64,000 bases of DNA from Chloroflexota bacterium (GCA_009837355.1 VXTR01000052.1:8600-72599); one strand, 5' to 3'. Shown: positions 43,286 to 59,196, counted from the first letter of the stretch. Made by a program: numbers and translations. Notes: generated by a model not told the origin, from the letters alone.

Positions 43286-43363
43286 TGACGCAACAAAATA
43301 GCGCGCGTGCCAAAGGGGCGGGTGTCAAACTCGCCCCTGTTGCGTTGCCCAGAATTAGCCGGA

Positions 43364-44539: not shown

Positions 44540-44568
44540 GGTTCACCTCTTTCCCGTTGGATAGCCGC

Positions 44569-45639
44569 TTACAGGAAGTGGGGGATGACGTACTTTCCGA
44601 AGAGGCGGATGCTGTTCATTATCTTGCTGTGGGGCAGGTTGCCCATCTGCATGAAGCAGAGAATCTGGTCAACGCCGGCCTCGCGGTACTTTTCGATGGT
44701 CTTGATGACGGTTTCGGGGCTGCCCATGGCGAAGGCGCCGGAAGCGATGTGGTCGTCGGCGGTCTTATCGACGCGTTCCTCCTGGACGGCGTTGACGGCG
44801 AACTGGTAGCTCTGGGGAACGTTGCGCCCGGCCCAGGGGGCGTAGAGTTCCTCCGCTTTGCCAACGAACCACTCGCCCTCGCGGGCAGCGGACTCGTAGG
44901 CTTCCTCGTCGGTGTCGGCGACGTGAACCATGCAGAGGGCGGCGATGTTGTCGTTGACCATCCGGCCGATGGGCCGGGCGTTTTTCACGGCATCGCGGTA
45001 AATCTGCACCCGCTCCACCAGCTGCTCGTGTCCGCCCAGGTTAAAGCAGAGGACACCGACGCCAAGCTCGCCGGCCTCGCCGAATGAAGTGGGCTGGCTG
45101 CAGGCCATCCACATGGGCGGGTGCGGGTTCTGCACGGGCTTGGGGATTACGGAACGGGGCGGGATGTTGTAGAACTCGCCGGAGTGGGAGAAAGGATCTT
45201 CCGTCCACATCCGGGGAATCATCTCAATGGCCTCGCGCCACTGGGCCTTGGTCGTTTCGGGGTCAACCTCAAAGCCGTCCATCTCGATGAGGGTGGTGGA
45301 GCGTCCCGTGCCCAGATCCATGCGCCCATCGCTAACGATATCCAGCACGGCGGCGCGCTCGGCAACACGGACGGGATGGTTGTAAGCGCCGGGCAGCAGG
45401 GCGACGGCGTGGCCGATGCGGATGCGCTTGGTGCGCTGGGAGATGGCCCCATACAGCACCTCCGGCGCGGAGCAGTGGGAAAACTCCCGCAGGAAGTGGT
45501 GCTCCACCGTCCAGAAGTAATCAAAGCCAACGTCGTCGGCCAATTCCACCTGGGCCATCACCTGCTTGTAACGCTCGGCTTCAACGCCGGGGTAGTGGGG
45601 TTCGGGAACCTGGATTTCGTACATCAATCCGAATTTCAT
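44569..45639 (-). CDS. LLM-class (luciferase-like) flavin/F420-dependent oxidoreductase
   Basis: 'MKFGLMYEIQVP...LADDVGFDYFWTVEHHF' is the typical LLM N-terminus. 356 aa. Confidence 0.85.
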   Translation of the reverse strand: MKFGLMYEIQVPEPHYPGVEAERYKQVMAQVELADDVGFDYFWTVEHHFLREFSHCSAPEVLYGAISQRTKRIRIGHAVALLPGAYNHPVRVAERAAVLDIVSDGRMDLGTGRSTTLIEMDGFEVDPETTKAQWREAIEMIPRMWTEDPFSHSGEFYNIPPRSVIPKPVQNPHPPMWMACSQPTSFGEAGELGVGVLCFNLGGHEQLVERVQIYRDAVKNARPIGRMVNDNIAALCMVHVADTDEEAYESAAREGEWFVGKAEELYAPWAGRNVPQSYQFAVNAVQEERVDKTADDHIASGAFAMGSPETVIKTIEKYREAGVDQILCFMQMGNLPHSKIMNSIRLFGKYVIPHFL

Positions 45640-45688
45640 AGGTTTTCTCCTCAGATCAGCTGCTTGCGTCAGTTGCCCACGGCTGGTG

Positions 45689-46795
45689 CTACGGCACCAG
45701 CATCGCCCGCGTTATCTCCGTCTGCCGCTGGCTCCACTCGGCGGCGGCAAAAGCTTCGTTCACGTCGGCCAGGGGGAAAGTGTGGGACACCAGCTTGTCG
45801 AAGGGCAGCCGGTCCTGGTTGCGCACCAGGAAGTCCAGCAGCTCGGGCAACAGCGACGGGCGGTACATCAGGCTGCCCACGATGTTCTTGCCTTGCAACA
45901 GCTTGGACGGGTCGATGGACACTTCCTGCCCGCGCACGATGTCGCCGATTTCCACGAAGGTTCCGCCGTTGGACAGCATATCGATGCCTTCTTTCAGCAG
46001 ATCGGCGCGACCCACCAGCTCCATCACCACGTCAGCGCCCCGGCCCCGGGTCAGCTCGCGGACGCGGCGGACGCGGGTTTCGGGCGTGTTGAACTCCTCG
46101 ATGTTGATGGTGTCGTCGGCGCCGAACTCCTCGGCCAGAGCCAGGCGGTTCTCCAGGCGGTCCAGCACGATGACTCGGTCGGCGCCCCGCTCTTTGGCCA
46201 TGGCGGTGGCGTGGATGCCCAGGCCGCCGGCGCCCATTATGACCACGGATTGGCCGTGGCTCATGCCGGCCCGTTCCAGGCCGGTGGTAACGGTGCCCAT
46301 GGCGCAGTTGACCGGCCCCAGGATGCTGTCGGGCAGCTCGTCGGGGACGCGGAAGAAGGGATGGCGCGGCGGCAGGTAGAGAAAATCGCCGTAGGTGCCG
46401 GTGAAGTAGGGCCAAATGCCGGCCGCGGGATACTGGCGGTTGACGCACCAGTTGGTGTTGCCCCGCAGACACATGTGACAGTGGTAGCAGGGGAACACGG
46501 CGGCGTACACCACCCGGTCGCCCTCTTCGACTTCCGTGCCATAGTAGTCGGAAGCGACGCCGTCACCCAGGTATTCGATGACGCCGGTGCCTTCGTGTCC
46601 CATGACGCGGCCGGTGTCGGGCAGTGGCAGGTGCTCCTGGGTCTGGTCGCCGCGCCAGGTGTGCAGGTCGGAGCCGCAGATGCCGGCCTGGGTCATGCGG
46701 AGCAGAACGGCGCCGGGTTGCGGCTCGGGCACGTCGTACTCTTCAATTTCAAATGGCTTGCCGTATTCTTTGACAACAACGATCCGTCCTTTCAT
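45689..46795 (-). CDS. Zinc-dependent medium-chain alcohol dehydrogenase-family oxidoreductase
   Basis: 'GICGSDLH' catalytic-zinc motif, structural-zinc Cys cluster 'CYHCHMCLRGNTNWC', 'VIMGAGGLG' Rossmann motif. Confidence 0.88.
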   Translation of the reverse strand: MKGRIVVVKEYGKPFEIEEYDVPEPQPGAVLLRMTQAGICGSDLHTWRGDQTQEHLPLPDTGRVMGHEGTGVIEYLGDGVASDYYGTEVEEGDRVVYAAVFPCYHCHMCLRGNTNWCVNRQYPAAGIWPYFTGTYGDFLYLPPRHPFFRVPDELPDSILGPVNCAMGTVTTGLERAGMSHGQSVVIMGAGGLGIHATAMAKERGADRVIVLDRLENRLALAEEFGADDTINIEEFNTPETRVRRVRELTRGRGADVVMELVGRADLLKEGIDMLSNGGTFVEIGDIVRGQEVSIDPSKLLQGKNIVGSLMYRPSLLPELLDFLVRNQDRLPFDKLVSHTFPLADVNEAFAAAEWSQRQTEITRAMLVP

Positions 46796-46905
46796 AGATT
46801 TCCCTCCGTGATACAGCCGTAGCTGGATGGCGGTATCCTAGCACAGCCCCGCCGGTTTTGTGCTATGCTGACGGCGCGAGAGGCGCCACCGGGAGCGGCA
46901 GAGTT

Positions 46906-47334
46906 ATGAAGATTGGGATTGGTTCCGACCACGCCGGGTTTGAATACAAAGGCAAGTTGCTGGCGCTGCTGGCCTACCTGGGCCACGAGGCGGTTGACTA
47001 CGGAGCCTACTCCGACGAAGCCAGCGACTACCCGCAGTGGATTCGGCCGGTGGCGGAGTCCGTGGCCCGGGGCGAGGTTGACCGGGGCATAGTGCTGGGC
47101 GGCTCCGGCAACGGCGAGGCAATCGTCGCCAACCGCGTGCCCGGCGTGCGCTGCACGCTGTGCTGGAACGTGGAATCAGCCCGCTACGGACGGCAACACA
47201 ACGACTCCAACGTGCTGTCCATGGGGCAGCGGATGGTGTCCTGGGAAACGGCGCGGGAGATTGTGGATGCGTGGCTGACCACCGAGTTCGAGGGTGGGCG
47301 GCACCTGCGCCGCATCAATCAGATAGACGAGTAA
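46906..47334 (+). CDS. rpiB: Ribose-5-phosphate isomerase B (RpiB/LacAB family)
   Basis: 'MKIGIGSDHAGFEYK' N-terminus. 142 aa from ATG 46906. Confidence 0.88.
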   Translation: MKIGIGSDHAGFEYKGKLLALLAYLGHEAVDYGAYSDEASDYPQWIRPVAESVARGEVDRGIVLGGSGNGEAIVANRVPGVRCTLCWNVESARYGRQHNDSNVLSMGQRMVSWETAREIVDAWLTTEFEGGRHLRRINQIDE

Positions 47335-47926
47335 CCCCAATCATGCTGTCCCGGGTAACGAGCCCGGCCAACTCCTCTTCGCTCATCCCCTCGGTCCCGG
47401 CCGGTCGGCACGGGAGCACGAGATAGCGCATATCGGCGGTGCTGTCCAGCACATCAACTCTGGTATCCGTGGGTAGCGTCGTCCCGAATTCCGCCATCAC
47501 GCCGCGAGGGTCGCTCACGGCGCGGGCACGGTAGGCCAGGCTCTTGTACCAGTCGGGCGGCCGGCCCAGCAGCATCCGGGGGTAGCAGGAGCACAGCGTG
47601 CAGACCACCAGGTGATGCAAGTCGTCGGTGTTCTCAACGACGGCCAGATGTGGTGTCTCCGCAGGTATGCTGATGCCCATTTCGGCCAGAGCGGAACGGG
47701 AATCGGCCAGGAGGCGAGCCTTGAACGCGGCGTCCGTCCAAGCGCGGGCGACGACCCTTGCGCCGTCGGCGGGAGTGCGCCCGTCCATCAGGTTCACCTG
47801 CTGCTGCACCTGGTCGGCGGTGAGCAGGCCCTTGTCGGCCAGCAGCGCCTCGATTGCCACCGAGCGCAGGGCAACCTCGCTCATGGGCTGGTCGTGTACG
47901 TGGTCTTCAACGTGGGTTGCGGTCAT
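47315..47926 (-). CDS. Nitrile hydratase alpha-subunit-like protein (Co-type VCTLCSC site)
   Basis: ATG 47926 with GGGAGGG RBS, 203 aa. 'HHLVVCTLCSCYPRMLLGRPPDWYKS' (nt about 47582-47608) is the NHase/SCNase metal-binding claw. Thr at position 2 of the claw is the cobalt-type variant. Confidence 0.88.
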   Translation of the reverse strand: MTATHVEDHVHDQPMSEVALRSVAIEALLADKGLLTADQVQQQVNLMDGRTPADGARVVARAWTDAAFKARLLADSRSALAEMGISIPAETPHLAVVENTDDLHHLVVCTLCSCYPRMLLGRPPDWYKSLAYRARAVSDPRGVMAEFGTTLPTDTRVDVLDSTADMRYLVLPCRPAGTEGMSEEELAGLVTRDSMIGVTRLSD

Positions 47927-47936
47927 ACTTCCCTCC

Positions 47937-49052
47937 CTAGTTGTGGCAGCCCCGCGCCTCGATATCCCACACCGCTTCGACCATGCCGTCGCGGATACCG
48001 ATGAAGCGGTCCCAGCGGCTGACCATAGCGTCTTGCTGGCCGGGGAGCAACAGAACCTGGTCGCCGACGGCCAGTTCAGCGCCTTCCGCCACCTGGAACA
48101 CAGTGCGGTCGGTGTCCATGGCAACGGCTTCAACGCCGGGGCGGCCTTCCACCCGGGGCAGGCCCTTGATGCCGCACACCGCGCGGGCGCCGGCGTCGCC
48201 GATGGCCGTTCCCGGCCGAGGCACGCTGACGATGGTGCTCAGCACCTTGCCGGCCAGGTGAAAGTCCTGGATGTAATCGTAGGAGGTTTCCATCACCAGG
48301 TAGGAGCCGCCCTGGATTTCGGTAACCTCAGGCATGTCGCCGGCGACGTCGTAGCTCCAGGTTTCGCCCGTGGATACGATTTCCACCGGAAGGCCGTCGG
48401 CAAGCATGGCTTCCCGCAGGTCCAGAACAGGCTGGACAAGGCGGCGAAGTTCGGAGACCCGGTCTTCCAGGTCGCCGGAGACTTCGGCCATCATCTGATG
48501 GCTCATCACGCCTTTCAGGGAAAGACCCGGCAGCGAATCAATCAGCCGGGCCAGGGCCACGCCGGATCCCACTCCATCCTCTCCTTCCTGCACGCCGCAG
48601 CGGAGCAGTCCGGTTTCCTGCTCGATGACCACGCCCAGGTTCACGCCTTGGTCAGCGGCGGCCTGAGAGAGGTCGCGGGCGTTGGTTTCGTTTTCGCAGG
48701 CCACCAGAATCTCGGCCTGGTCGGCCAAAGCGCAAAGCCGGGCAATCTTGGGCTGGGCGACCACCTCGCTGGTTACGAATACGCTGGCCACGCCGCCCTG
48801 CACCATCACCTCAGCTTCGGCGACCTTGGCGGCGCACACTCCGCCGATGGTGCCGCCCCGTTGAATCTGCCGGAGGGCCAAAGCCGGGCTCTTGTGATTC
48901 TTGCTATGGCCGCGCAGCTTGCTGTGGCGTCCTTCGTAGTAGTCGGCGATCACATCCATGTTGTGGTCCAGCGCGTCCATATCCAGGATGAGGCATGGAG
49001 TATCCAGCTCCGCCATGGGAGTGCCGGGTTGGGGTTCATACGCTTGCGGCAT
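47937..49052 (-). CDS. DSD1/D-threonine aldolase-type PLP enzyme (alanine racemase N-terminal fold), canonical Lys present
   Basis: ATG 49052 with GGAGG RBS. 'LRGHSKNHKSPALA' matches the RPHxKTHK PLP-Lys motif. 371 aa. Confidence 0.78.
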   Translation of the reverse strand: MPQAYEPQPGTPMAELDTPCLILDMDALDHNMDVIADYYEGRHSKLRGHSKNHKSPALALRQIQRGGTIGGVCAAKVAEAEVMVQGGVASVFVTSEVVAQPKIARLCALADQAEILVACENETNARDLSQAAADQGVNLGVVIEQETGLLRCGVQEGEDGVGSGVALARLIDSLPGLSLKGVMSHQMMAEVSGDLEDRVSELRRLVQPVLDLREAMLADGLPVEIVSTGETWSYDVAGDMPEVTEIQGGSYLVMETSYDYIQDFHLAGKVLSTIVSVPRPGTAIGDAGARAVCGIKGLPRVEGRPGVEAVAMDTDRTVFQVAEGAELAVGDQVLLLPGQQDAMVSRWDRFIGIRDGMVEAVWDIEARGCHN

Positions 49053-49131
49053 GGAAGTACCTCCGAGGTTTCCTGGTATCTGGTTGAATCCGGCCGTGGA
49101 TACTTGGCCGGCGGATTGCAGCAATGCCGAA

Positions 49132-50250
49132 CTATCCCAGCTGTCCCCGGCCGGAGACGGGCCAGTACCCCACCAGCCGGCCGCCCTGAACGGCGCGGAT
49201 GTAGTCATACTGGTTCACGCACAGGGCCAGGTTGTACGGAACCAGGCGGACCTTGTCGTTGGGCATCAGCTGCTCGGTGGCCGGCCCGTCCAAGTCCAGG
49301 ATGCCGTGCTCGGCGCTGAACCTGGCGGCGACGGCGCCCGGGAATCCATGGAGAACCGGCACGCCGAAATCGGGGCCGGTGGTCTTGTGGCCGGCGTCCA
49401 CCACCGCCCGGCCGGCGACGGGATGGCTGATAACCGTCGCCAGCACTGTGGCCGCGGATTGCAGTTCGGGGCGAACCCGCAAGGTCTCCGCATCCATCAG
49501 AGGATACACTCCCGCCTGAACCTCGGTGATGCCCGACAGCTGCGAGACCACGTCGTAGTTGTAAGTGCTGCCGGCGCTCACCGTGGCAACCTCCAGGCCG
49601 GCCTGCTCTAGGTCGCTGCGAGTGTCCAGCACCGGCTGCAGACGGCGAAGGGTTTCGGCGTCCAGCTCGGCGTGGTCGGCGATGGGCAGCGGGCCCTCGT
49701 AGGTCATTATCCCCTGGAAGGACAAGCCGGCCGCGTCCGCAACCGCGCGGGCCAGGTCAACCGCATCCCTACCGGGTGCAACACCGCCAAACCCGTAGCC
49801 GGAGTCGATGTCCACCAGCACGCCCAGGGTAACACCGGCCGCCCGCGCAGCCTCGCTGAGGTCGGCGACGTTGCGGGCGTCGTCCACGGCCACGCTCAGC
49901 GTAATTCGTCCCGCCAGGGCGACCAACCGGCGAATCTTGGCGGCGGTTACCACCCGACCGGCGATGAGTATGTCGTCGATGCCAGCATCGTCGCCGGCAA
50001 ATGCCTCGGCTTCTGCCAGCGAACTCACGGCCACGCCGCCGGAGCTGCCGCCGGCGTCCAGCTGGTACCGGGCGATATCAGGGCAGCCATGGCAGGAGAC
50101 GTGGGGGCGCACCAGGACCTGGCCGTCGCCGCCAATAGCGCCGTGCAGTCGCGCGATGTTCTGCTCCATTATCCCCAGGTCAACCACCAGGGCCGGCGTG
50201 TCCAGTTTCTCGACGGGGGCGCCAAATGGCTGAAATATGGGCCGCTCCAT
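49132..50250 (-). CDS. DSD1/D-threonine aldolase-like paralog lacking the PLP lysine
   Basis: 372 aa with the same overall layout ('LDTPALVVDL...'). The motif reads 'VRPHVSCHGCP' (nt about 50082-50114), so Ser and Gly occupy the positions of both Lys residues. Confidence 0.7.
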   Translation of the reverse strand: MERPIFQPFGAPVEKLDTPALVVDLGIMEQNIARLHGAIGGDGQVLVRPHVSCHGCPDIARYQLDAGGSSGGVAVSSLAEAEAFAGDDAGIDDILIAGRVVTAAKIRRLVALAGRITLSVAVDDARNVADLSEAARAAGVTLGVLVDIDSGYGFGGVAPGRDAVDLARAVADAAGLSFQGIMTYEGPLPIADHAELDAETLRRLQPVLDTRSDLEQAGLEVATVSAGSTYNYDVVSQLSGITEVQAGVYPLMDAETLRVRPELQSAATVLATVISHPVAGRAVVDAGHKTTGPDFGVPVLHGFPGAVAARFSAEHGILDLDGPATEQLMPNDKVRLVPYNLALCVNQYDYIRAVQGGRLVGYWPVSGRGQLG

Positions 50251-50298
50251 TGCTCAGGTCCCTCTCAATTGCGATGCTGGCCGGCAGGATAGCACAAA

Positions 50299-50601
50299 TC
50301 AGGCCGGTTCCAGCCAGTGCTGGTACACGTCCACCAGCAGCGTATCGTCTGGATTGCCGGCGTAGTCTGGCCACAGGTCGGTCTGGCGCAGCCGGACGCG
50401 GTACAGCGGCTGCCGCGGCAACCCGTCGCCCCCATGCGCCAGCGATTCAGGATTGGGATACGTGCCGCACAGCGCGTCCACCACGCCGGTGTGCCCCTGG
50501 ATGTAGGCCGGCGTGCGGAAGTGATGGGCCGGCGCTCCAACGCGCACGCGCACAGCAGCGCCGTCAGGGTAGCGGACGGTTTCGGAAGAAATGGTAGTCA
50601 T
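50299..50601 (-). CDS. Nitrile hydratase beta-subunit C-terminal half (stand-alone, SH3-like)
   Basis: 100 aa. 'HHFRTPAYIQGHTGVVDAL...PLYRVRLRQTDLWPDY...TLLVDVYQHWLEPA' follows the GHxRxPxYxRGKxG...LYxVxF...LWG...VxVDxWExYLE pattern of NHase beta C-termini. Confidence 0.8.
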   Translation of the reverse strand: MTTISSETVRYPDGAAVRVRVGAPAHHFRTPAYIQGHTGVVDALCGTYPNPESLAHGGDGLPRQPLYRVRLRQTDLWPDYAGNPDDTLLVDVYQHWLEPA

Positions 50602-50625
50602 GGCATCCGCACTCAGGCTTGAGCA

Positions 50626-51048
50626 TCAGGGTTGGCGTTGCAGTATAACGCGCAATGAGGCGGGCGTGATAATCGGGATTACGGACTCTTCGGTAAGAGC
50701 CAATAGGTCGGGATCCTTTGTTACCAGATAATCTGCTGCGGCTTGGTAGGCGAGTACGAGGAACATCTGGTCTTTGGGATCGCGGCAGGTTGGCGTTTCC
50801 GGGGGCGAGTCAGGTATGGCAACCCTTTCGCAGTGATCAAAGTAGGCAGCAGCAGTGTCGGTGATCTGCTCCTCGGAGATTCCGAGTCTGGGGTTGCGCA
50901 GTGTTCGGATTAACTCTGCCTTAGTGTCGCTACTGATAAGCGGCACGATATGCTGTTGTTCCGACGCCTCACGAAGCCATATGTCACTGCTGGTTGTCCT
51001 GGCGATTGGCATCAGCACAGCATTGGTGTCCAAAACCACCCTTATCAT
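50626..51048 (-). CDS. PIN-domain toxin (PIN_3/TIGR00305-like)
   Basis: 140 aa. 'IRVVLDTNAVL' N-terminal acidic motif and 'YLVTKDPDLL' C-terminal Asp. ATGA overlap with the upstream gene. Confidence 0.78.
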   Translation of the reverse strand: MIRVVLDTNAVLMPIARTTSSDIWLREASEQQHIVPLISSDTKAELIRTLRNPRLGISEEQITDTAAAYFDHCERVAIPDSPPETPTCRDPKDQMFLVLAYQAAADYLVTKDPDLLALTEESVIPIITPASLRVILQRQP

Positions 51049-52151
51049 TGGCCGCTTCTTTCGGCGCGGGTCTCTGCTATCGCAGCGAGAATATCGTCCT
51101 CGGTGAGTTCCAGGGCTTGTATGCGTCTCAAAGCCGCTTTGACTCGTTCTGGATTACTCCGATGCGTCCGGTTAGAGTTTTTGAAGGCTATGATGTCGCC
51201 CAAGTCTTTGATGTTGTGGCTCCGCATAGGTTTGCCGAAGCCGTTCCGTAGGACCTCCCACGTTTCAACCAGCGGGTAAATTTCTTGATGCAGTACCAAA
51301 ACGGCATCAAACGCGCTGATGTCCGGCATGGTAGCTGCATCCCAATCGGACGCGTACAGAAACTGCTGATTGTGTAGGATGAGGCAGTATTTAGCCCCGT
51401 TCAGAGCTGTCAGTTTGCTTGGCTTGCGGCCGTGCTTTATGGCGTCATTGAGGGCCGTTTGGAGAGTGTCGGGGCCGTCGGGCATCTGCGGCAATGGCAT
51501 TGCCAGCAAATCGAGTTGCTCCGCGATGCCTCGCTTATCGTTCGGATGCCCAACCTTGCGGTGGTAGTTTTCTTTAGGATCAAGGCGCAGTTCGGTGAGT
51601 TCGAAGGCCCATGTGACGCCATCAATAGTTGCCCGATAGTCAATGGGATCGTTCGGATTTTCCCGATCCCAAGCGACGTTGACAGTTAGGCCCTGTTGGG
51701 TAAGGAAAATGGCCGCTTTCCGCATCAGGTCGTACTCTCGGAGTTCCTTATCGGACATAGCATCGAACTTGTTCGCCATCCTGGTTCGCTCTTCCACTAT
51801 CACGCTGATGTCGGCCGCGGCCTCGCGGAGGGTTTCGGCCACGGCCATGGGATTAGTTGCGCAGCTCCATAGGGTGATTGGGCTAAATGAATCGGCATAC
51901 TCGGGATAGCGGTCTGTGATGTATTGCCGCAAGTCCGGCAGCAAATGCGGCAACCCGTAGGTTCGGATTTTATTCTGCGCCTGGGTTTCGGCAGCCATGA
52001 ACTCGTCCCGCGCCTGTAGGAGCGCGCTGTAGGCGCCGCATTCCTGTAATGCGGTTGGAGCAGCGCCGGCAACTATCTCCGCCGCCCGGTTGATTACGGT
52101 TGCGGCGAAGTCTGCGTTGACAGTTGGAGTGTCGCTTTTTGAGGTAGCCAT
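51045..52151 (-). CDS. 368-aa hypothetical protein, upstream partner of the PIN toxin
   Basis: Clean ATG. Helical N-terminal third, a central region of unknown fold, and a C-terminal helical tail (RVKAALRRIQALELTEDDILAAIAETRAERSGQ) ending in the ATGA overlap with the PIN gene. Confidence 0.6.
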   Translation of the reverse strand: MATSKSDTPTVNADFAATVINRAAEIVAGAAPTALQECGAYSALLQARDEFMAAETQAQNKIRTYGLPHLLPDLRQYITDRYPEYADSFSPITLWSCATNPMAVAETLREAAADISVIVEERTRMANKFDAMSDKELREYDLMRKAAIFLTQQGLTVNVAWDRENPNDPIDYRATIDGVTWAFELTELRLDPKENYHRKVGHPNDKRGIAEQLDLLAMPLPQMPDGPDTLQTALNDAIKHGRKPSKLTALNGAKYCLILHNQQFLYASDWDAATMPDISAFDAVLVLHQEIYPLVETWEVLRNGFGKPMRSHNIKDLGDIIAFKNSNRTHRSNPERVKAALRRIQALELTEDDILAAIAETRAERSGQ

Positions 52152-52200
52152 GATTACTGTACGAGGTCACGCGATCACGAATTTGGATGCTTGTACCTCG

Positions 52201-52230
52201 ATTATCGTTGGATAAAATGCACGCTGTCAA
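52201..52230 (-). promoter_or_regulatory. Near-consensus promoter (TTGACA, 18-nt spacer, GATAAT) for the 368-aa/PIN pair
   Basis: TTGACA is the reverse complement of 52225-52230 and GATAAT the reverse complement of 52201-52206. About 50 nt upstream of ATG 52151. Confidence 0.55.
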
Positions 52231-52243
52231 CACGGAAACGTGA

Positions 52244-52420
52244 TTAGAAGTGATCACCCACCGCGTCGGCGTAGCAGTATCCAAATCGGCTGAGACGTAT
52301 TAATCGGTGGAGTAATTCATTATCGTCGTCAGTATATCCTTCCGATTCTAGTAAATCTCGATAATCCGGGAACCGATCCAGCCAGCGGACCAGCTTGGCA
52401 TCTGCCTCCGCGATCTTGTT
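52244..52420 (-). other. 58 sense codons continuing in frame after the TGA stop of the 286-aa gene (readthrough, pseudogene or recoding candidate)
   Basis: The frame continues as NKIAEADAKLVRWLDRFPDYRDLLESEGYTDDDNELLHRLIRLSRFGYCYADAVGDHF then TAA (52244-52246). No ATG, GTG or TTG is present until 5 codons before its end. Confidence 0.4.
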
Positions 52421-53281
52421 TCAATTGTAGCCTGGCTCGTAAGCCATTCGAATTCTGTTCGACTCTTCTCTCAGATTATCGGGGATTCGGCGCATTACCC
52501 CGTCTTCGTCTGACACCAATAACGGAGCTTGCTGTTCTAGATCTCGTCGCGTCCATGGTCCTGACTCAATACCCGGTCTGGCTGCAGCCATCATTAGCTC
52601 AGTCTCGGACGTCCAGAATGCGTATGGACGCACATGTAGGGTTTTCATTATTCGAACTGCTTCTTTAATGATGTCGTCAGCAGCAGTAGCTACGGAACTA
52701 TCGATCTGCGGCCTGCATTCCGAAACTGGCAGGTCCCAAAGCTCGTAATATGGTCGTCCGATGACGGCCTCAATATCGGCTGTACCTATCCGGTCATTCC
52801 CAAGCGTCCAGGATGCCAGAGCGATCTGTCCCTCCATCTTCTCTCGTGGGTCGGATGAGTGATATTTGCGGCGGATCTCATGCTTGTTGCGCAAATCAAC
52901 GGATTCGATTGGTCGTGTCCGTGAAGTTTCAAATACGATGATCATGTGATCCCGCATTCCAAAAAACCGTGCGCACTGGTACCACAGTGACTTTTGATCT
53001 GAGTACCGTGTTAAGATGCGCGCCCGTTCGTCACGGTCTGCAAAGGTTTCCACATGGAACCGCTGATCAAGTTCCGTGACAAATCGGTCACGATACTCAC
53101 CTGCCTGGCGGTCCAAGTAGCCCGTACGCCAGTAGATAGCGTCCCAATATAGGTAATCTTGGAACTTCAATTGATGGAAGAAAGTTGAAATCCCGTTCGG
53201 ATTCCAAGATTGACCGTTTACGCGGGTCTCACGCGGTAGTCCTAATGCATCCCACATACCAGTCTCCGTAACAGTCATCAC
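52421..53281 (-). CDS. 286-aa hypothetical protein (island gene), start overlapping the NHase beta-N stop
   Basis: GTG 53281 or ATG 53278 overlaps the TGA of the upstream gene (CTGTGATGACT). AT-richer codon usage than the flanks. No family recognised. Confidence 0.6.
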   Translation of the reverse strand: MMTVTETGMWDALGLPRETRVNGQSWNPNGISTFFHQLKFQDYLYWDAIYWRTGYLDRQAGEYRDRFVTELDQRFHVETFADRDERARILTRYSDQKSLWYQCARFFGMRDHMIIVFETSRTRPIESVDLRNKHEIRRKYHSSDPREKMEGQIALASWTLGNDRIGTADIEAVIGRPYYELWDLPVSECRPQIDSSVATAADDIIKEAVRIMKTLHVRPYAFWTSETELMMAAARPGIESGPWTRRDLEQQAPLLVSDEDGVMRRIPDNLREESNRIRMAYEPGYN

Positions 53282-53580
53282 AGCCCCCGCTGCCGCAGCT
53301 CGGCGGCCTTGGCGTCGATCTCCGCCGCCGTCAGGATGCCCTTTTCAATCAGCAGGATTTCCAAGGCCGCCGTCCATTTTTCGTAGTAGGACAGCGATTC
53401 GTACTGCTCCGGTGGCAGGCTCTCGATGGCCCGCCGCATCTCGTCGGTGGTGCGGATGCCCTGCGCGGCCAGCACCTGGTGCACGGCGTCAACCCGACGC
53501 TCCCAGTCGCTGTATTCGTGCTCGGTGCGGTCGATGGGCGTGTCGTCGGGCCAGCCGCCCCGGTCGTGTGCTGCGGGCAT
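53278..53580 (-). CDS. Nitrile hydratase beta-subunit N-terminal half (stand-alone)
   Basis: ATG 53580 with AAGGAG RBS, 4 nt after the deacetylase stop. 'HDRGGW...IDRTEHEYSDWERRVDAV...DEMRRAIESLPPEQYESLSYYEKWTAALEILLIEKGILTAAEI' follows the NHase beta N-terminal pattern. Confidence 0.8.
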   Translation of the reverse strand: MPAAHDRGGWPDDTPIDRTEHEYSDWERRVDAVHQVLAAQGIRTTDEMRRAIESLPPEQYESLSYYEKWTAALEILLIEKGILTAAEIDAKAAELRQRGL

Positions 53581-53584
53581 ACTG

Positions 53585-54403
53585 TTACGCTCCTTTCTCC
53601 CACATCTCGGCGAGGGCGTCGGCGCGCATGAACCGGACGCCGGGGAAGGTCTTGATGTACTCAATCAGCCGTTCCAGCATCAGCAGCCGCCCCGGCCGCC
53701 CGATGTACTGCGGGTGCATGGTCAGATTGTAGCAGCGTCCGTAGCGGTAGATGCCGCGGAACTCCTCCGCCCAGCTCACGAACACCTCGTCGGGGTTGCG
53801 CATGGGCCCCAGGCGGTTGGCCGACGGCGCGTAGGCGAAGTGGGGCGCGTCGTCCAGCAGCCAATGGATGGGCAGCTCCACCATCTGCCGGGGCGGGTCG
53901 CCGCCGGACACGAAATACGGCGCGTCGTCGCCCATCAGGCTGCTGTCGTAGCAGAAGCCGTGCTTGGCCAGCAGGTCCAGCGACACCGCGCTCAACTCCC
54001 AGCTGGGCGAGCGGTAGCCCACCGGCGCGGTGTCGGTCAGCTCGCCCAGGATGCCGATGCCCTTGACCAGCACTTCCTCCTCCTCGGCCGGCGTCATGGT
54101 GGCCGGCGGCTCGTGGAGGTAGCCGTGGTGGGCGACTTCATGGCCACGTCCGGCGATCTCCCGCACCAGGTCGGTATGGGTCTCGGCCACCTGGCCGGGG
54201 ACGTAGAAGCTGGCCGGAATGCCCTGGGCGTCCAGCAGATCCAGGATGCGCGGCGTGGCGACGCTGGGGCCGTACTCGGCCATGGACAGCAGGCTGGGGT
54301 AGTTGGCGAAGTCGGCGTTGCGCCGCAGCCAGGAAGAAACGCCGTCCACGTCAAAAGTAATCAGCGCCACGCACTGTATGTCATCGGGCCAAATGCCGGA
54401 CAT
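53585..54403 (-). CDS. Polysaccharide deacetylase (NodB-homology/PuuE-like) family hydrolase
   Basis: 272 aa. 'VALITFDVDGVS', 'GHEVAHHGYLHE' and 'RSPSWELS' match the NodB metal and catalytic motifs. Confidence 0.8.
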   Translation of the reverse strand: MSGIWPDDIQCVALITFDVDGVSSWLRRNADFANYPSLLSMAEYGPSVATPRILDLLDAQGIPASFYVPGQVAETHTDLVREIAGRGHEVAHHGYLHEPPATMTPAEEEEVLVKGIGILGELTDTAPVGYRSPSWELSAVSLDLLAKHGFCYDSSLMGDDAPYFVSGGDPPRQMVELPIHWLLDDAPHFAYAPSANRLGPMRNPDEVFVSWAEEFRGIYRYGRCYNLTMHPQYIGRPGRLLMLERLIEYIKTFPGVRFMRADALAEMWEKGA

Positions 54404-54494
54404 ATCGATTCTCTCCGTTGTGCCAATCTTGAGAAGTGCTCAGATGTGTTTAACGATTGCGGCCGCGGACCATGTTGCGGAATTCAGCTACGGT

Positions 54495-54686
54495 TCAGCC
54501 GGCTTGAGCGATAATGCCGCCCATAGTGTTGGGGGGAATGTCTTTACCATGATGACGTGGGATGGGCACCATCCTGCCGTCCTTTATTGCCTTCGTATGC
54601 TTGCGGCCCTGATTGATTGTCCACCCGTCGTTGCGAAAGGCCCGCAGAACGTCGGAGATGGTAAAACCGGGAACCCGAGGCGGCAT
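54495..54686 (-). CDS. hicA: HicA-family mRNA interferase toxin
   Basis: 63 aa from ATG 54686. 'VLRAFRNDGWTINQGRKHTKAIKDGRMVPIPRHHGKDIPPNTMGGIIAQAG' fits the HicA dsRBD-like pattern. ATGA overlap with the upstream gene. Confidence 0.8.
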   Translation of the reverse strand: MPPRVPGFTISDVLRAFRNDGWTINQGRKHTKAIKDGRMVPIPRHHGKDIPPNTMGGIIAQAG

Positions 54687-55330
54687 CAGACGCGCTCGCG
54701 CTGCTCCCACAGGGCAACGTAGGCCACTTCGATACTGGCAAGGGCGATGCCATAGTACGGGTCGCGCCGGAGCGCAGCGTCATAATCGGCGATAGCCAAG
54801 TCATACTGCCCGCTGTTGAAGTGCGCGTCGCCTCGCCGGCAATAAGCCTCGGCGTTGTCGGGGGCAAGGGATATGGCGGTGGAGCAATCGTCAATGACTT
54901 GGCCATACTCTCCCTTGTTGAGATAAGCGCCGGCCCGTTCTATGTAGGCTTTGACATCATTGGGATTGCGTTCAATGGCGGCGGTGCAGTTGGATACTAT
55001 TTCATCCCAATCCGCCGGAAGGACAGTGGTTATTTCGATGCCGTAACCCTCGGTCCGGTATTCAGCGACGGTAGCCGCCATGGCGTTAGGGGTAAAGAGC
55101 GGTTCCACGCCGTCTTCGGCGTAGCTGTCCAGCAAAATCGAGATTGCGTCGGCAATCATCTCCAGCGCTTCCTCGCGAGTGTCGCCCTGGCTGGCGCAAC
55201 CTAGCGAGGGGCATAGCACGGCATAGCCCTCGTCTTCTGGATGTGTAACCAGCAATACTTCGTACTCCTGACCTTTGCCGGCCCGGGTTACGTGGTCGGC
55301 ATCGGCCAAATTGGAGGCATTGGACGTCAT
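54686..55330 (-). CDS. HicB-like antitoxin domain fused to TPR repeats
   Basis: 214 aa. N-terminal 'YEVLLVTHPEDEGYAVLCPSLGCASQGDTREEALEMIADAISILL' is HicB-like. The C-terminal half holds about 3 TPR units (AIERNPNDVKAYIERAGAYLNKGEYGQVIDDCSTAISLAPDNAEAYCRRGDAHFNSGQYDLAIADYDAALRRDP). No RHH or HTH domain seen. Confidence 0.7.
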   Translation of the reverse strand: MTSNASNLADADHVTRAGKGQEYEVLLVTHPEDEGYAVLCPSLGCASQGDTREEALEMIADAISILLDSYAEDGVEPLFTPNAMAATVAEYRTEGYGIEITTVLPADWDEIVSNCTAAIERNPNDVKAYIERAGAYLNKGEYGQVIDDCSTAISLAPDNAEAYCRRGDAHFNSGQYDLAIADYDAALRRDPYYGIALASIEVAYVALWEQRERV

Positions 55331-55450
55331 TATGCTTCCCCTCCGCTCAGCAGGATGGTATCACATAGGAGGTATTAGGGCGATGCAGCGGATGTCGTCA
55401 GGCCAGATGTCGGACATTGCAAACCTCTTTGTTGGTCGGCGCCTCTACGC

Positions 55451-56731
55451 CTACCCCGCCGGTATCACGTCAAACCCCGTATAGGGCCGCAGCGCTTCCG
55501 GTATCACCACCGACCCGTCGGGCTGCTGGTTGTTCTCCAGGATGGCGATGATGACCCGCGGCAGCGCCAGGCCGGAGCCGTTCAGCGTGTGCACGAAGCG
55601 GGGCCGCTCCCCCGCCGCCGGACGGTAGCGGATGTTGGCCCGCCGCGCCTGGAAGTCGGTGCAGTTGGAGCACGACGACACTTCCAGCCACTCCTGCGAA
55701 CCGGCTGCCCACACCTCGATGTCGTAGGACTTGGTCGAGGGGAACGAGATGTCGCCGGCGCACAGCTGCAGGATGCGGTAGGGCAGGTTCAGCCGCTGGC
55801 ACACGGCTTCGGCGTTGCCCAGCAGCGACTCCAGCTCGTCGAAGGAGGTCTCCGGCGCGACGAACTTGTACATCTCCACCTTGTTGAACTGATGCACCCG
55901 CTTGATGCCCCGGGTGTCCCGGCCGGCCGCCGCTTTCTCCCGCCGGAAGCAGGGCGTCTGCGCCACGTAGTACCGGGGCAGCTCGTCGGCGGACAGGATT
56001 TCGTCCCGGTGCAGGTTGGTAACCGGCACCTCGGCGGTGGGTATCAGCCAGAGGTCATCCTCGTCGTCGTGGTACAGGTTGTCGGCGAACAGCGGCAGGT
56101 TGCCCGAGCCTTCCATGGTCTCCCGGCGCACCAGGATGGGCAGGGCCATTTCAGTGTAGCCGTGCTCCCGGCCGTGCAGGTCCAGCATCCACGAGATGAT
56201 CGCCCGCTCCAAGCGCGCCCCGTAGCCGTTGAAAGTGTAGAACCGGCTCCCCGACAGCTTGACCCCCCGCTGGAAGTCGATGATGCCCAGCCGCTCGGCG
56301 ATGTCCCAGTGGGGCTGCGCCTCAAAATCCAGCTGGGTCGGCTCGCCCCAGTGGCGCAACACGACGTTGGCGGTCTCGTCGATGCCGTCGGGGGTGCTGG
56401 CGTCGGGCAGGTTGGGCAGGGCCATCATGGCGTCGTTGATTTGCGCGTCCAGCGAGCGTACTTCGTCCTCAAGCTCGCTGATGCGGCGGCCAACGTCGCG
56501 CATCTGGGCCACCACATCGTCCGGAGGCTGTTGCCCCTGCGACCGCGCCTGCCCGATTTCCCGTGACACCTGGTTGCGCCGCGCGCGGAGTTCGTCGCCC
56601 TCGGTTACGGCGACGCGACGCCGGGCGTCCATCGCGAGTATGTCGTCCAGGCAGTCCTCGTCCTCGGCCCGTCTGACCAGGGCGGCGCGCACGGTGTCGG
56701 GATCGCTGCGAATCTGTTCAATGGAAAGCAT
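55451..56731 (-). CDS. serS: Seryl-tRNA synthetase
   Basis: 426 aa with an N-terminal coiled-coil arm and class II motifs ('YVAQTPCFRREKAAAGRDTRGIKRVHQFNKVE', 'HTLNGSGLALPR'). Confidence 0.94.
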   Translation of the reverse strand: MLSIEQIRSDPDTVRAALVRRAEDEDCLDDILAMDARRRVAVTEGDELRARRNQVSREIGQARSQGQQPPDDVVAQMRDVGRRISELEDEVRSLDAQINDAMMALPNLPDASTPDGIDETANVVLRHWGEPTQLDFEAQPHWDIAERLGIIDFQRGVKLSGSRFYTFNGYGARLERAIISWMLDLHGREHGYTEMALPILVRRETMEGSGNLPLFADNLYHDDEDDLWLIPTAEVPVTNLHRDEILSADELPRYYVAQTPCFRREKAAAGRDTRGIKRVHQFNKVEMYKFVAPETSFDELESLLGNAEAVCQRLNLPYRILQLCAGDISFPSTKSYDIEVWAAGSQEWLEVSSCSNCTDFQARRANIRYRPAAGERPRFVHTLNGSGLALPRVIIAILENNQQPDGSVVIPEALRPYTGFDVIPAG

Positions 56732-56776
56732 AAAAAACTGCTGCTCGTCAGTATCAGGGATTCGTCGCTGTAGCGA

Positions 56777-58345
56777 TCACCCGTCGTTATCGTCGGGTGT
56801 GCCAGCGTTTCCGGCCTCGCCGGACAGGGAACGCATCTGCGGGAATAGTAGCACATCGCGGATGGTGGACTGCCCCGTGAGCAGCATCACCAGCCGGTCG
56901 ATGCCGATGCCCAACCCGCCCGTCGGTGGCATTCCGTACTCCAGGGCGGTGAGGAAGTCGGCGTCGGTGCGGTCGGCCTCCTCATTGCCGTAGGCGTCCC
57001 GCTGGTGTTCCTGGGCGGCGAACCTCGCCCGCTGCACTTCGGGGTCGTTCAGCTCGGTGTAGGAGTTGGCGATCTCCATGCCGGCGGCGAAGGCTTCAAA
57101 CCGCTCGACATAACCGGGCTTGTCGGGGTGCCCCTTGGCCAGCGGCGACATATCCTCGGGATAGTCCAGCAGGAAGGACGGCTGAATCAGGTTCGGCTCC
57201 ACGTACACTGACAGCATCTTGTCAATCAGCCGTCCCCGTGCCTCTCTCGGGCCCGGCTGCAGCCCCAGGTCCTGGGCCACCCGCGTCAGCGATTCGGCGT
57301 CGGGGTAATCCTCGATGTCGATGCCGCTGCGCCGTAGCAGTTCCTCCCGCAGCGAAAGGCGCGCCCATGGCGGAGTGAAGTCAATCAGATGGTCGCCCAT
57401 GGCTATCTGCATACTGCCGTGCACGTCCTGCGCCAGCGTGGACACCAGAGATTCAACCATCTCCATAACGACGTTGTAGTCGGCGTAGGCTTCGTAAGAT
57501 TCCAGCAGTGTGAACTCCGGGTTGTGGTCCTGGTCGATCCCTTCGTTGCGGAATACCCGGCCGATTTCAAACACCTTGTCCAGGCCGCCGACGATGAGCC
57601 GCTTCAGGTACAGCTCGGTGGCGATGCGCAGGTACAGCCGCTCGTCCAGCGCGTTGTGATGAGTGGTGAACGGACGGGCGTGGGCGCCGGCCGGGATGGG
57701 CACCAGGATGGGCGTGTCAACCTCAACGAAGCCGCGGTTGTCCAGAAAGCGGCGGATGCCGCTGATGATGCGGCTGCGCTGCACAAACGTGTCGGCTACT
57801 TCCGGGTTGGCGATGAGGTCCAGGTATCGCTGGCGGTAGCGAGTTTCCACGTCGCGCAGGCCGTGCCATTTTTCAGGCAGGGGACGCATCCCCTTGGCCA
57901 GGATGGTCAACGAATGGGCCTCAATGGTCACCTGGCCGGTGCGCGTGCGTATCATGTTGCCGGTGACGCCAAGAAAATCGCCTAGGTCAAGATCGGACAG
58001 TAGGGCGTAGTCCTCGCCCAACACGTTCTGCCGCAGCATCGTCTGCACCACGCCGGAAGCGTCCCGCAGGTCCAGGAAGGCGGCGCGCCCCATCACCCGC
58101 ATGGACACGATGCGACCGGCCAGGTTCAAACCGCTGGCGGCGTCGGGCTGCTCCGCGGCTTCGGCGGCCTCGAAGCGGGCGATGGCCTCGGCGGCGGTGC
58201 TGGCGCGCTGGAAACGGGGCGGGTAAGGGTCGATGCCGCGTTCCCGAATGCGTTCCAACTTGGCGCGGCGGCTCTCCAGGTTTGCCTCGAGGCTACTCAG
58301 GTTATCAATAGTATCGGTTCGAGAAAGTTCGTTTTGGTCAGGCAT
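56777..58345 (-). CDS. lysS: Lysyl-tRNA synthetase (class II)
   Basis: OB anticodon-binding domain 'LAGRIVSMRVMGRAAFLDLRDASG', class II core and 'GIDRLVMLLTGQSTIRDVLLFPQMR'. ATG 58345 preferred over TTG 58369. Short acidic C-terminal tail. Confidence 0.93.
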   Translation of the reverse strand: MPDQNELSRTDTIDNLSSLEANLESRRAKLERIRERGIDPYPPRFQRASTAAEAIARFEAAEAAEQPDAASGLNLAGRIVSMRVMGRAAFLDLRDASGVVQTMLRQNVLGEDYALLSDLDLGDFLGVTGNMIRTRTGQVTIEAHSLTILAKGMRPLPEKWHGLRDVETRYRQRYLDLIANPEVADTFVQRSRIISGIRRFLDNRGFVEVDTPILVPIPAGAHARPFTTHHNALDERLYLRIATELYLKRLIVGGLDKVFEIGRVFRNEGIDQDHNPEFTLLESYEAYADYNVVMEMVESLVSTLAQDVHGSMQIAMGDHLIDFTPPWARLSLREELLRRSGIDIEDYPDAESLTRVAQDLGLQPGPREARGRLIDKMLSVYVEPNLIQPSFLLDYPEDMSPLAKGHPDKPGYVERFEAFAAGMEIANSYTELNDPEVQRARFAAQEHQRDAYGNEEADRTDADFLTALEYGMPPTGGLGIGIDRLVMLLTGQSTIRDVLLFPQMRSLSGEAGNAGTPDDNDG

Positions 58346-58556
58346 GGGCACGTCTTGGGCAGCGTCCAAACGCCGCCGGTTGGAAATGGCGTTTATGCTG
58401 TGGTGGCGAGTTTAGATTATAAAGCAAAACCGCTAAACTACGCAGGTTCACCAATAGTCAAGCAGCGGCTAACACGACTACAATTGCTGCGACATCCCGG
58501 TTGGCACAATCAGCCCCAACCGGGAACACGGCGACGTCAGCACTGGAGGTGCGACG

Positions 58557-59159
58557 ATGATTCAACGAATGATTGGTGCGGCGTTCTTCAACCGCAATAC
58601 CTACGAGGAAATCGAAGCCGACCAGGGCGCGTTGGGCCAGGCCATCGGCGTGGTGCTGCTGGTAACGCTGTGCGGCATCGTCGGCGGCGTCATCGGAGGG
58701 ATTATTCAAGGCGAATCCCTCGGCCTGGGCATTCTCCTGGGCATCATCGGCGGGTTCGTGTTCGGCATCGTCCGCTGGGCGCTCTGGGTGTCGGTGATGT
58801 ATCTGGTGGGCGGCAAGATGCTGCGCACCAGCGACACCGAAACCAGTTGGTCTGAAGTGGGACGCGTCGTGGGTTTCGCCTATACGCCCGGTGTGTTGTC
58901 GCTGTTCACTTTTGTCCCAGCCATAGGCGGACTATTCGGGCTGGTGGCATTTGTCTGGCAAGTATCGGCAGTGGTAGTAGCGGTGCGCCAGGCGATGGAT
59001 TTCGAGTCCACTGGCCGGGCCATCGGGGTGGTGCTGCTTTCCGCAGTCATCGGCTTCATCCCGTGGGTGATCATCGTCGTCATTCAATGGTCGATTCTCG
59101 GCGGGCCCGAAGCTCAGGAGGTCGAGAGCGCGGTGCGCACCTTGCTCGCTCTGGTCTGA
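58557..59159 (+). CDS. Yip1-domain membrane protein
   Basis: 200 aa. 'FFNRNTYEEIEADQGALGQAIGVVLL' N-terminus plus 5 hydrophobic segments. Confidence 0.7.
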   Translation: MIQRMIGAAFFNRNTYEEIEADQGALGQAIGVVLLVTLCGIVGGVIGGIIQGESLGLGILLGIIGGFVFGIVRWALWVSVMYLVGGKMLRTSDTETSWSEVGRVVGFAYTPGVLSLFTFVPAIGGLFGLVAFVWQVSAVVVAVRQAMDFESTGRAIGVVLLSAVIGFIPWVIIVVIQWSILGGPEAQEVESAVRTLLALV

Positions 59160-59196
59160 CGGTACAGCGTGGAGAGGTGAGCGGGATAGGATAGAT

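Follow-up and report, generated by a model that had tools for sequence, protein, structure and literature searches.

The window analyzed here, a stretch of 64,000 nt from a sponge-derived Chloroflexota (Dehalococcoidia) metagenome-assembled genome (MAG; GCA_009837355.1, VXTR01000052.1:8600-72599), contains a nitrile hydratase (NHase) operon in which the two halves of the beta subunit, beta-N and beta-C, are separated by other genes. Our analysis indicates that the beta-N/beta-C junction of a three-subunit Co-type NHase in marine and sponge-associated Dehalococcoidia is probably a variable, integrase-free hotspot for cassettes, and that the window shows it in the occupied state. The insert covers 2676 nt (50602-53277, minus strand) and holds three genes: a 286-aa open reading frame (ORF) of the family termed here ORF350, the gene of a 368-aa orphan protein (ORF368) and a PIN_3 nuclease gene. 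An initial annotation, made from the sequence alone, had described three same-strand genes between beta-N and beta-C, and their ORFs and coordinates agree with those found here.

Occupancy of the beta-N/beta-C junction

Proteins more than 90% identical to the beta-N of the window were found on many contigs, and a scan of GTDB species representatives gave 80 loci, all of them in Dehalococcoidia or SAR202-type MAGs. A close-clade set (n = 54: 51 scan loci, the window, L014 and L015) was distinguished from a distant clade with 60-76% identical beta-N, and a locus was regarded as occupied when the gap from beta-N to beta-C exceeded 300 nt. Occupied loci make up 22/54 of the close clade and empty loci 32/54, and in the distant clade every locus is empty, with the alpha gene usually directly after beta-C. 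The site is also empty in the nearest relative (L021, CBDEUH010000004.1; nucleotide identity 90-95.6%). The earlier suggestion that the genes landed in the beta-N/beta-C spacer without reversing the polarity of the operon is supported. Nine relatives (L005-L013) show a bare junction, in which beta-N and beta-C overlap by 4 nt. Among the filled junctions, L014 has one gene, of the ORF350 family, two Tara contigs (L015 and L016) have the same three genes as the window, and a 4.55-Mb chromosome (L020) has eight genes. Occupied and empty loci are interleaved in a neighbor-joining tree of the flanks.

By synteny comparison, the three genes are patchy in distribution and do not belong to the conserved cluster. 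The same genes are indeed found in the same place in some relatives, but 32/54 loci of the close clade have nothing there and others are filled with unrelated cargo. The genes had been regarded as one island; they are adjacent, but they do not form a single unit, since the relatives reveal two independent cassettes that occur alone or together (the ORF350-family gene alone in L014 and L061, ORF368+PIN_3 alone in six loci, both together in L015). Joint travel of all three genes had been posed as a check; it is seen for the ORF368+PIN_3 pair, and the ORF350-family gene is separable from it.

Gaps longer than 300 nt were detected from beta-N to beta-C in 22/54 loci, from the upstream polysaccharide-deacetylase-family gene to beta-N in 2/54, from beta-C to DSD1a in 1/40, from DSD1a to DSD1b in 2/39 and from DSD1b to alpha in 0/38 (DSD1a and DSD1b are two DSD1-family pyridoxal-phosphate (PLP) enzyme genes). 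The only comparably variable spot is the upstream intergenic region between the seryl-tRNA synthetase (SerRS) gene and the deacetylase gene (gap > 300 nt in 25/50 loci), which contains HicAB in the window. The close-clade inserts are 1.1-5.9 kb long and have GC contents below those of their flanks in all but L058, and the cargo lies on the operon strand in 21 of the 22 inserts.

At least seven module types were found as cargo at the junction: the ORF350-family gene; ORF368+PIN_3 (12 loci); a ~180-aa, ~125-aa and 300-337-aa membrane-protein module, whose 337-aa protein matches the PADLOC candidate PDC-M09A (9e-27); a pair of 243-aa and 120-aa proteins, the smaller being PaREP1/HEPN-like; HNH proteins of 539-554 aa; a DUF7689 protein; and a 1029-aa methylase-like protein (weak match). 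The only defence-related matches found in this cargo are the PDC-M09A candidate, generic HNH and PIN domains, the PaREP1/HEPN-like protein and the weak methylase-like match. The cargo families are under purifying selection (dN/dS 0.12-0.36), and they are also found off-site in restriction-modification (R-M), transposon-rich and housekeeping contexts. In L027 and L034, the 243+120-aa module stands in place of ORF368 and PIN, but directly upstream of beta-C the spacer and ~20 nt from the end of the PIN reading frame persist; this remnant is the scar of a cassette replacement at the junction.

The description of the inserted genes as AT-richer and foreign-looking is supported by all three composition checks. 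The GC content of the 2676-nt insert is 53.2%, the lowest of 1120 segments, and all other segments of equal length average 63.2% (standard deviation 2.05; z = -4.87). The tetranucleotide distance is 0.405 for the insert vs 0.193 ± 0.032 elsewhere, and the GC content at third codon positions (GC3) is 0.51-0.64 in the insert genes vs 0.79-0.91 in the flanking genes.

In the empty state, beta-N and beta-C overlap by 1-4 nt or abut, as separate ORFs, in 68/68 empty loci. This distribution shows that the beta split is ancestral and predates the insert. The initial annotation had also offered the reading that the island split a once-fused beta gene, which would be a case of 'genes in pieces'. The insert is located exactly at the beta domain boundary, and phages provide known cases in which a free-standing endonuclease gene split another gene by inserting into it. 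This explanation is nevertheless hardly credible here: because all 68 empty loci, including the never-occupied distant clade, hold two ORFs with a stop between them, the insert did not split beta. An insertion that long predates this clade and was lost again in its common ancestor is formally conceivable, but nothing supports it. Split beta is also found in Streptomyces, where the three-subunit NHase AnhD/AnhE/AnhA of Streptomyces canus is known (PMC7329996). The NHase of the window should accordingly not be called disrupted.

The two flanking genes, both on the minus strand, encode proteins of 100 aa each. Beta-N (53278-53580; PF21006 (NHase_beta_N), E = 2.6e-23; exact protein MXZ91160.1) matches positions 1-98 of the 226 positions of the canonical beta model TIGR03888, and beta-C (50299-50601; PF02211 (NHase_beta_C), E = 9.7e-21) matches positions 134-226 of 226; they would serve as the left and the right homology arm of the hotspot, respectively. 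Upstream of beta-N, the deacetylase-family gene (53585-54403, minus; PF01522, E = 1.4e-17) is the first gene of the conserved cluster and ends 4 nt before beta-N. Downstream in the operon are the two DSD1-family PLP enzyme genes (49132-50250 and 47937-49052, minus; Pfam) and the Co-type NHase alpha gene (47315-47926, minus; PF02979, E = 8.9e-80; TIGR01323, 254.7 bits vs a cutoff of 249.85). With the alpha motif VCTLCSCY and beta encoded by two ORFs, the NHase of the window is assigned by its sequence to the three-subunit split-beta Co-type.

The exact proteins belong to the Chloroflexota MAG GCA_009841575.1 (contig VXLO01000035), and the arrangement of the window is common to four independent assemblies of the strain (L001-L004). 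As the four independent assemblies agree, the arrangement is not an assembly artefact. A chimera was considered and ruled out by this shared layout, and long-read chromosomes share the architecture.

The two cassettes of the window

The first cassette consists of the 286-aa ORF (52421-53281, minus), which the initial annotation listed as an unknown gene. The ORF is present, but it is not an intact gene, since a TGA cuts a longer gene of the ORF350 family. In the alignment with the read-through translation, the in-frame TGA (52421-52423) stands at a conserved Trp codon of the family; it is present in all four assemblies, and reading through it gives ...ADAKLVRWLDRFPDYRDLLESEGYTDDDNELLHRLIRLSRFGYCYADAVGDHF, which matches the ORF350-family C-terminus. 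The 286-aa ORF is thus a ~343-aa gene shortened by a nonsense codon, and it should be annotated as nonsense-truncated; the copy in the window is inactivated or shortened by the TGA. After the TGA, 57 in-frame codons are followed by TAA at 52244-52246. Because the ORF350-family frame continues beyond the TGA in this way, most of the 269-nt 'gap' to the next gene is a dead 3' end (52244-52420, minus).

ORF350 homologues have 337-354 aa, or about 500 aa with an N-terminal extension. The conserved N-terminus of the family begins with MWD(A/E)LGL, which in the window corresponds to the ATG at 53257 with GGAG as ribosome-binding site (RBS) at 53264-53267, and both this RBS and the MWD start recur in a homologue from a non-NHase context. 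The native start of the window copy is therefore probably ATG 53257, and cassette 1 would then run from 53257 to 52421 (minus; 278 aa, or 285 aa from ATG 53278). The family is small (33 clusters among 5.8 billion proteins), has dN/dS of 0.12-0.19, and gave no match in Pfam, PADLOC, PHROG or NCBIfam. Its homologues are situated right after a type I R-M hsdR gene, a linkage seen in a single case (L017), and also beside DDE transposases.

The right junction reads CTG TGA TGA CT, and the start/stop overlap with beta-N that had been described is seen in the sequence: ATG 53278 shares one base with the beta-N stop and GTG 53281 shares four. The hexamer ATGACT at this overlap (53273-53278, minus) also begins the present beta-C (50596-50601) and is a candidate relic of the original beta-C start and second codon. 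Because the ORF350-family start probably lies at ATG 53257 with its own RBS, ATGACT is best read as a beta-C leftover, and it is probably what remains of the original beta-C start and second codon. In the empty relative L021, the corresponding place reads TGATGACTGCT, with a TGATG overlap, and the cassette-free junction sequence is …CTGTGATGACTGC…. In L014, ATGAAT is found at the corresponding position and ATGAAC at the beta-C start, a single-base co-variation that is weak evidence. Coupled translation from the ATGACT start may still occur, as it is in frame with the ORF. A search for a crossover point within the beta-C of the window, by comparison with L021, showed even identity (~91%) starting near codon 7, and the initial 18 nt are variable in every lineage. 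The left junction agrees with its previous description: a 24-nt spacer (50602-50625, minus), homologous to the PIN-to-beta-C spacer of other occupied loci, separates the PIN stop from the beta-C ATG.

The second cassette consists of ORF368 (51045-52151, minus; 368 aa) followed by the PIN_3 nuclease gene (50626-51048, minus; 140 aa; PF13470, E = 1.6e-15), the start of which overlaps the ORF368 stop (ATGA), with the toxin-family gene second. The bicistronic pairing of ORF368 with PIN_3 is conserved: the two genes stay together in 12 loci at the hotspot and in two elsewhere, one after an isocitrate/isopropylmalate-dehydrogenase-family gene and followed by HNH and Smr genes, the other in an insertion sequence (IS)-rich region. 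The PIN_3 protein scores above the cutoff of PF13470 and the curated cutoff of TIGR00305 (E = 1.5e-11), is annotated as a member of a toxin family, and has its residues D7, E45, D93, D112 and D114 invariant in 11 homologues. The dN/dS values are 0.18-0.31 for PIN and 0.20-0.36 for ORF368. Upstream of ORF368 is a promoter-like site, TTGACA-18-GATAAT (52201-52230, minus), which has 11/12 consensus positions and is the best in the 9 kb scanned, although such sites are overall no more numerous than expected by chance; it could be the promoter of cassette 2. No convincing terminator was seen between PIN and beta-C.

Three parts can be told apart in ORF368: an N-terminal domain of helices, an alpha/beta domain in the middle, in which E139, D171 and E184 are invariant, and a tail of helices at the C-terminus. 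Among 5.8 billion proteins, 69 clusters belong to the family, and a full HMMER search of 1.84 billion representatives found 77 of them to be members. No match to ORF368 was found in Pfam, NCBIfam, PADLOC or PHROG, no Pfam domain in the 77 representatives, and no annotated distant relative of either orphan protein by profile search or by the full HMMER search. Profile searches of the orphan proteins against PDB sequences gave nothing below E = 0.25. Usable AlphaFold2 (AF2) models were obtained for ORF350 (pLDDT 78.5, pTM 0.84) and ORF368 (pLDDT 81.7, pTM 0.62; C-terminal helices, residues 334-367, of low confidence), and Foldseek searches of both against PDB and BFVD returned nothing at E < 0.1. 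The profile and structure comparisons that had been proposed for the 286-aa and 368-aa proteins thus gave no significant match. The best Foldseek matches of ORF368 are weak (the SPARDA DREN and Hjc nucleases; E >= 0.14, probability <= 0.44). Together with the E139…D171…E184-x-(T/K) pattern, which is invariant in the central alpha/beta domain, these non-significant matches make a PD-(D/E)xK-type fold in ORF368 a lead, not a finding. In the proposed reading, ORF368+PIN_3 would be a self-promoted, translationally coupled module of toxin-antitoxin (TA)-like or defence type, in which PIN would be the RNase effector and ORF368 the partner that restrains or triggers it.

The three genes might alternatively be functional NHase accessory components, maturation or regulatory, that were recruited to the operon. 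They share one strand and are packed closely, the first ORF is readable as translationally coupled to beta-N, some relatives have the same genes in the same place, the genes are under purifying selection, and NHases commonly need accessory proteins (PMC7329996). Against this, the operon is intact without an insert in 32/54 close-clade loci and in the whole distant clade, and unrelated alternative cargo occupies the site in other loci. The ORF350-family copy of the window carries a nonsense codon, GC3 is 0.2-0.4 below that of the operon genes, and PIN_3 is annotated as a toxin family; homologues are located after hsdR, beside IS elements and after the isocitrate/isopropylmalate-dehydrogenase-family gene. 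An accessory role was rejected on the presence/absence pattern, the other genomic contexts and the nonsense codon, and we consider it very unlikely.

Flank-gene copies and the proposed movement of cassettes

The absence of an integrase, a tRNA gene and flanking direct repeats, stated in the initial annotation, holds for the window, but the relatives have partial beta-C and beta-N copies between cassettes, and these copies are the missing clue to cassette movement. No tRNA gene was found in the window, no integrase near the junction in the gene tables of the window and of the relatives' loci, and no transposase or integrase gene within the 22 distinct inserts. The ends of the window insert showed neither significant direct repeats nor terminal inverted repeats, no Rfam family (riboswitch, group I/II intron or similar) matched in the window, and the ORF350 and ORF368 families were absent from the viral contigs of IMG/VR.

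Partial copies of beta-C or beta-N were detected within the inserts of L023, L015, L040 and L071. In L023, a copy of beta-C nt 1-98 is found upstream of ORF364, a copy of nt 1-235 between PIN and the 243+120 module, and the HNH gene is preceded by a beta-N fragment. L015 has, after the ORF350 gene, a beta-C pseudo-copy with a mutated start codon, the upstream spacer of which is the same as in the one-gene locus L014. The alignment shows that the pseudo-copies of L015 and L023 end at nt ~98, with the TTGACA of the ORF368 promoter-like site directly next, and the ORF368 upstream region is homologous in these two loci. The last 150 nt of beta-N are duplicated in L071, and L040 contains a beta-C fragment. 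An ectopic second copy in one genome (L101), located among IS genes, was recovered as a single 3268-nt high-scoring segment pair (79.9% identity) spanning the last 65 nt of beta-N, four cargo genes and the first ~143 nt of beta-C. L101 carries both stubs, and the cargo therefore travels as DNA fragments that keep both homology arms.

The identity of the cargo is uncorrelated with that of the flanks (r = 0.17; in one pair, for example, the flanks are 90.8% and the cargo 69.2% identical), which points to shuffling of cargo among lineages. The dS of the cargo is similar to the dS of the flanks. These values suggest old, diversifying cassettes that would be shuffled among lineages by recombination with beta-N and beta-C.

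Under the hotspot explanation, beta-N and beta-C would act as homology arms for the recombination by which cassettes arrive, replace one another and disappear. Cargo would be exchanged by double crossovers, and duplicated stubs would remain after single-arm or Campbell-type events; an element-encoded recombinase would not be needed. Because the cargo is co-oriented with the operon and no recognisable terminator is present, we propose that beta-C, the DSD1 genes and alpha would still be transcribed, by read-through and from the cassette promoter. In the occupied state, beta-N and beta-C would no longer be translationally coupled as they were originally.

Several points weigh against this explanation. 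No fragment of beta-C or beta-N was found in the insert of the window itself (blastn, E < 1e-3), and the model rests on the relatives. The flank tree is built from only ~1.4 kb, with which gain, loss and allele replacement are inseparable. Homology of the flanks accounts neither for the first entry of a cassette nor for the preference for the beta-N/beta-C junction. Typical type II antitoxins are much smaller than ORF368, in which no DNA-binding domain is recognisable. The ORF350 and ORF368 families have no PADLOC match, and no validated defence system was found among the cargo. The promoter, the read-through, the toxicity and the defence roles are all inferred. A stub in the window may have decayed beyond detection. 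An apparent alignment match near 52231-52258 was set aside as too weak to claim.

Another proposal, which we regard as rather unlikely, describes the junction as a dedicated, recombinase-free cassette-accretion site of a kind not described before. Either the 5' end of beta-C (nt 1-98 or 1-235) or the 3' end of beta-N would be copied in every cassette, and single-crossover or homing-like integration would regenerate beta-C and leave a pseudo-copy. Integron-like arrays without IntI or attC would result, and their place between two subunit halves that depend on each other would shield them from imprecise deletion and provide free transcription. ORF368+PIN_3 and ORF350 would then be new defence or addiction systems specific to these uncultivated symbionts.

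The stubs could also have arisen from site-specific selfish elements that home into the junction: a cargo nuclease (HNH, PIN or a PD-(D/E)xK-like ORF368) would cut the empty site in genomes that lack the cassette, repair from a cassette-bearing copy would install it, and imprecise repair would leave stubs. The same junction is filled across species whose flanks differ by up to ~20%, no integrase is present at the loci, several cargo sets encode nucleases, ORF368 has the invariant E...D...ExT/K pattern and weak PD-(D/E)xK Foldseek matches, and flank-gene stubs are duplicated within the inserts. However, those Foldseek matches are not significant, PIN domains are typically RNases, and the large HNH protein resembles a defence-type multidomain protein, not a compact homing endonuclease. 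Some cargo also lacks a recognisable nuclease, e.g., the 180+125+300-aa module and ORF350 alone, and the cargo dS is close to the flank dS, with no near-identical cargo in divergent hosts and hence no sign of recent homing sweeps. Homing is thus an unlikely origin of the inserts.

A conventional mobile element, either a transposon or an integrase-borne island, might have delivered the genes, its mobility genes or ends being decayed or outside the insert. The ORF350 cassette is flanked by a 6-9-bp duplication of the beta-C start (ATGACT / ATGAAYACT), like a target-site duplication, and the ectopic L101 is found among DDE and rve transposase genes. Yet the 22 distinct inserts have no transposase or integrase gene, no terminal inverted repeats, tRNA genes or Rfam matches were found in the window, and the duplicated segments of 98-235 nt are far longer than a target-site duplication of transposition. 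Delivery of this kind is therefore improbable, and the recombinase and the att sites or tRNA gene expected of an integrase-borne island or prophage remnant were not found.

Known systems, other variable spots and implications

The NHase itself resembles known split-beta Co-type enzymes, to which the three-subunit toyocamycin NHase ToyJKL also belongs. As in AnhD/AnhE/AnhA (PMC7329996), beta-N and beta-C are separate ~100-aa proteins, alpha has VCTLCSC, and the order is beta-N, beta-C, alpha. Unlike in these systems, two DSD1-family genes usually lie between beta-C and alpha, and the beta junction may hold foreign cassettes. The two DSD1-family enzymes are paralogous and occupy this position in 40/51 close-clade loci; alpha directly follows beta-C in the other 11 and in the distant clade. 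As the DSD1 genes, which have host-like GC, also lie between beta-C and alpha in these 40/51 loci, the NHase genes are interrupted twice. The similarity of the two enzymes to 3-hydroxy-D-aspartate aldolase (BhcC) is weak and falls far short of the family cutoff, and the pair together with the deacetylase suggests an unusual substrate pathway. Beta-N weakly matches the NHase accessory-protein model TIGR03889 (E = 1.6e-5). The beta-N-like subunit AnhD of Streptomyces doubles as a self-subunit-swapping metallochaperone (PMC7329996), and if this were true for beta-N here, the cargo would separate the gene of a chaperone-like subunit from its partner.

Other variable spots were also observed. Between SerRS and the deacetylase gene, the window contains a HicA toxin gene (54495-54710, minus) and a HicB-like antitoxin fused to tetratricopeptide (TPR) repeats (54686-55330, minus), with GC contents of 0.57-0.59. 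HicAB is absent there in close relatives, and this gap is a second variable spot of up to 6.7 kb. A comparison of L021 with 43000-61000 of the window shows indels at several gene boundaries: the SerRS-to-deacetylase interval is ~4.9 kb long in L021 and ~1 kb in the window, and L021 is longer by ~1 kb from beta-C to DSD1a and by ~0.7 kb after alpha. Small gene-boundary insertions seem to be common in these genomes. In L005-L008, a MazE/PemK-type TA pair and a Uma2-family endonuclease gene are found between the alcohol dehydrogenase (ADH) and luciferase-like genes and between the lysyl-tRNA synthetase (LysRS) and SerRS genes, at positions that are empty in the window; they are further small cassettes wedged between housekeeping genes. 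Two additional low-GC islets are present in the window. One (35118-37390, plus; ~0.55-0.57), which by tetranucleotide distance is the second most atypical region of the window, has genes for a protein with a CYTH domain and for a leucine-rich-repeat protein of 562 aa. The other (62474-63995, minus; 0.52-0.55), which reaches the window edge, encodes a DUF4276 protein and an AAA_21 (AbiEii-like) ATPase and looks like another defence-type pair.

Core-gene-flanked hotspots of defence genes and horizontal gene transfer have been described as E. coli hotspot #37 and as the core defence hotspots of P. aeruginosa (PMC10121019, PMC10250203), and 68% of the instances of hotspot #37 have no detectable mobile genetic element (PMC10121019). 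The NHase junction shares with them the fixed position between conserved flanking genes, the patchy occupancy, and a diverse cargo of atypical composition with nuclease, TA or defence-candidate genes and mobility genes that are often undetectable. Here, however, the hotspot is intra-operon and its flanks encode the halves of a single subunit, with a usual overlap of 1-4 nt, the cargo is small (1-6 kb) and co-oriented (21/22), and partial flank duplicates are found between cassettes. No validated defence system was identified in the cargo, which is a further difference from known defence hotspots.

ORF368+PIN_3 is similar to type II TA systems with a PIN toxin (VapC-like/TIGR00305 PIN_3) in having two genes with a 4-nt overlap and the toxin second, intact acidic residues, a promoter-like site and scattered accessory positions. 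The upstream partner differs: it is a 368-aa orphan multidomain protein, maybe with a nuclease-like core, not a DNA-binding antitoxin of ~70-100 aa, and ORF368 is not a small upstream antitoxin of the ribbon-helix-helix (RHH), AbrB, helix-turn-helix (HTH) or Phd type. The junction is also like the 'genes in pieces' of free-standing homing endonucleases, for example mobE in the nrdA gene of phage Aeh1, in that a selfish gene for a nuclease would lie between the pieces of a gene whose product can still assemble, no integrase is present, and spread would depend on recombination with the flanks. The split was not created by the insertion here; it predates the cargo, which is heterogeneous and includes nuclease-free sets. 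Chromosomal integron arrays are comparable in their compact same-strand, often promoterless cassettes at one site, the commonness of TA cassettes and a GC content below that of the host. They differ in that no IntI gene is near any locus here and the cassette boundaries are flank-gene copies, not attC; no attC-like element was detected and Rfam gave no match, a weaker negative as an attC model in Rfam was not confirmed.

What is new is the intra-operon location at the overlap of two subunit halves, the strict co-orientation, and the flank-gene stubs between cassettes. Since sponge symbionts are rich in TA and defence genes (PMC5649159, PMC5099237), TA- or defence-like cargo is expected in this organism; its location is not. 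Hotspots are usually described between independent core genes, mostly in well-studied Proteobacteria, whereas the present one is intra-operon and in uncultivated sponge and marine Dehalococcoidia. A gene that is already split can serve as a safe landing pad, and small integrase-free cassettes could be exchanged via very short homology arms (65-235 nt). The orphan families ORF350 and ORF368, the latter always with PIN_3, and further modules are flagged as candidate TA or defence systems. The empty and filled states of the junction provide a natural comparison for the effect of cargo on the stoichiometry and expression of a multi-subunit enzyme.

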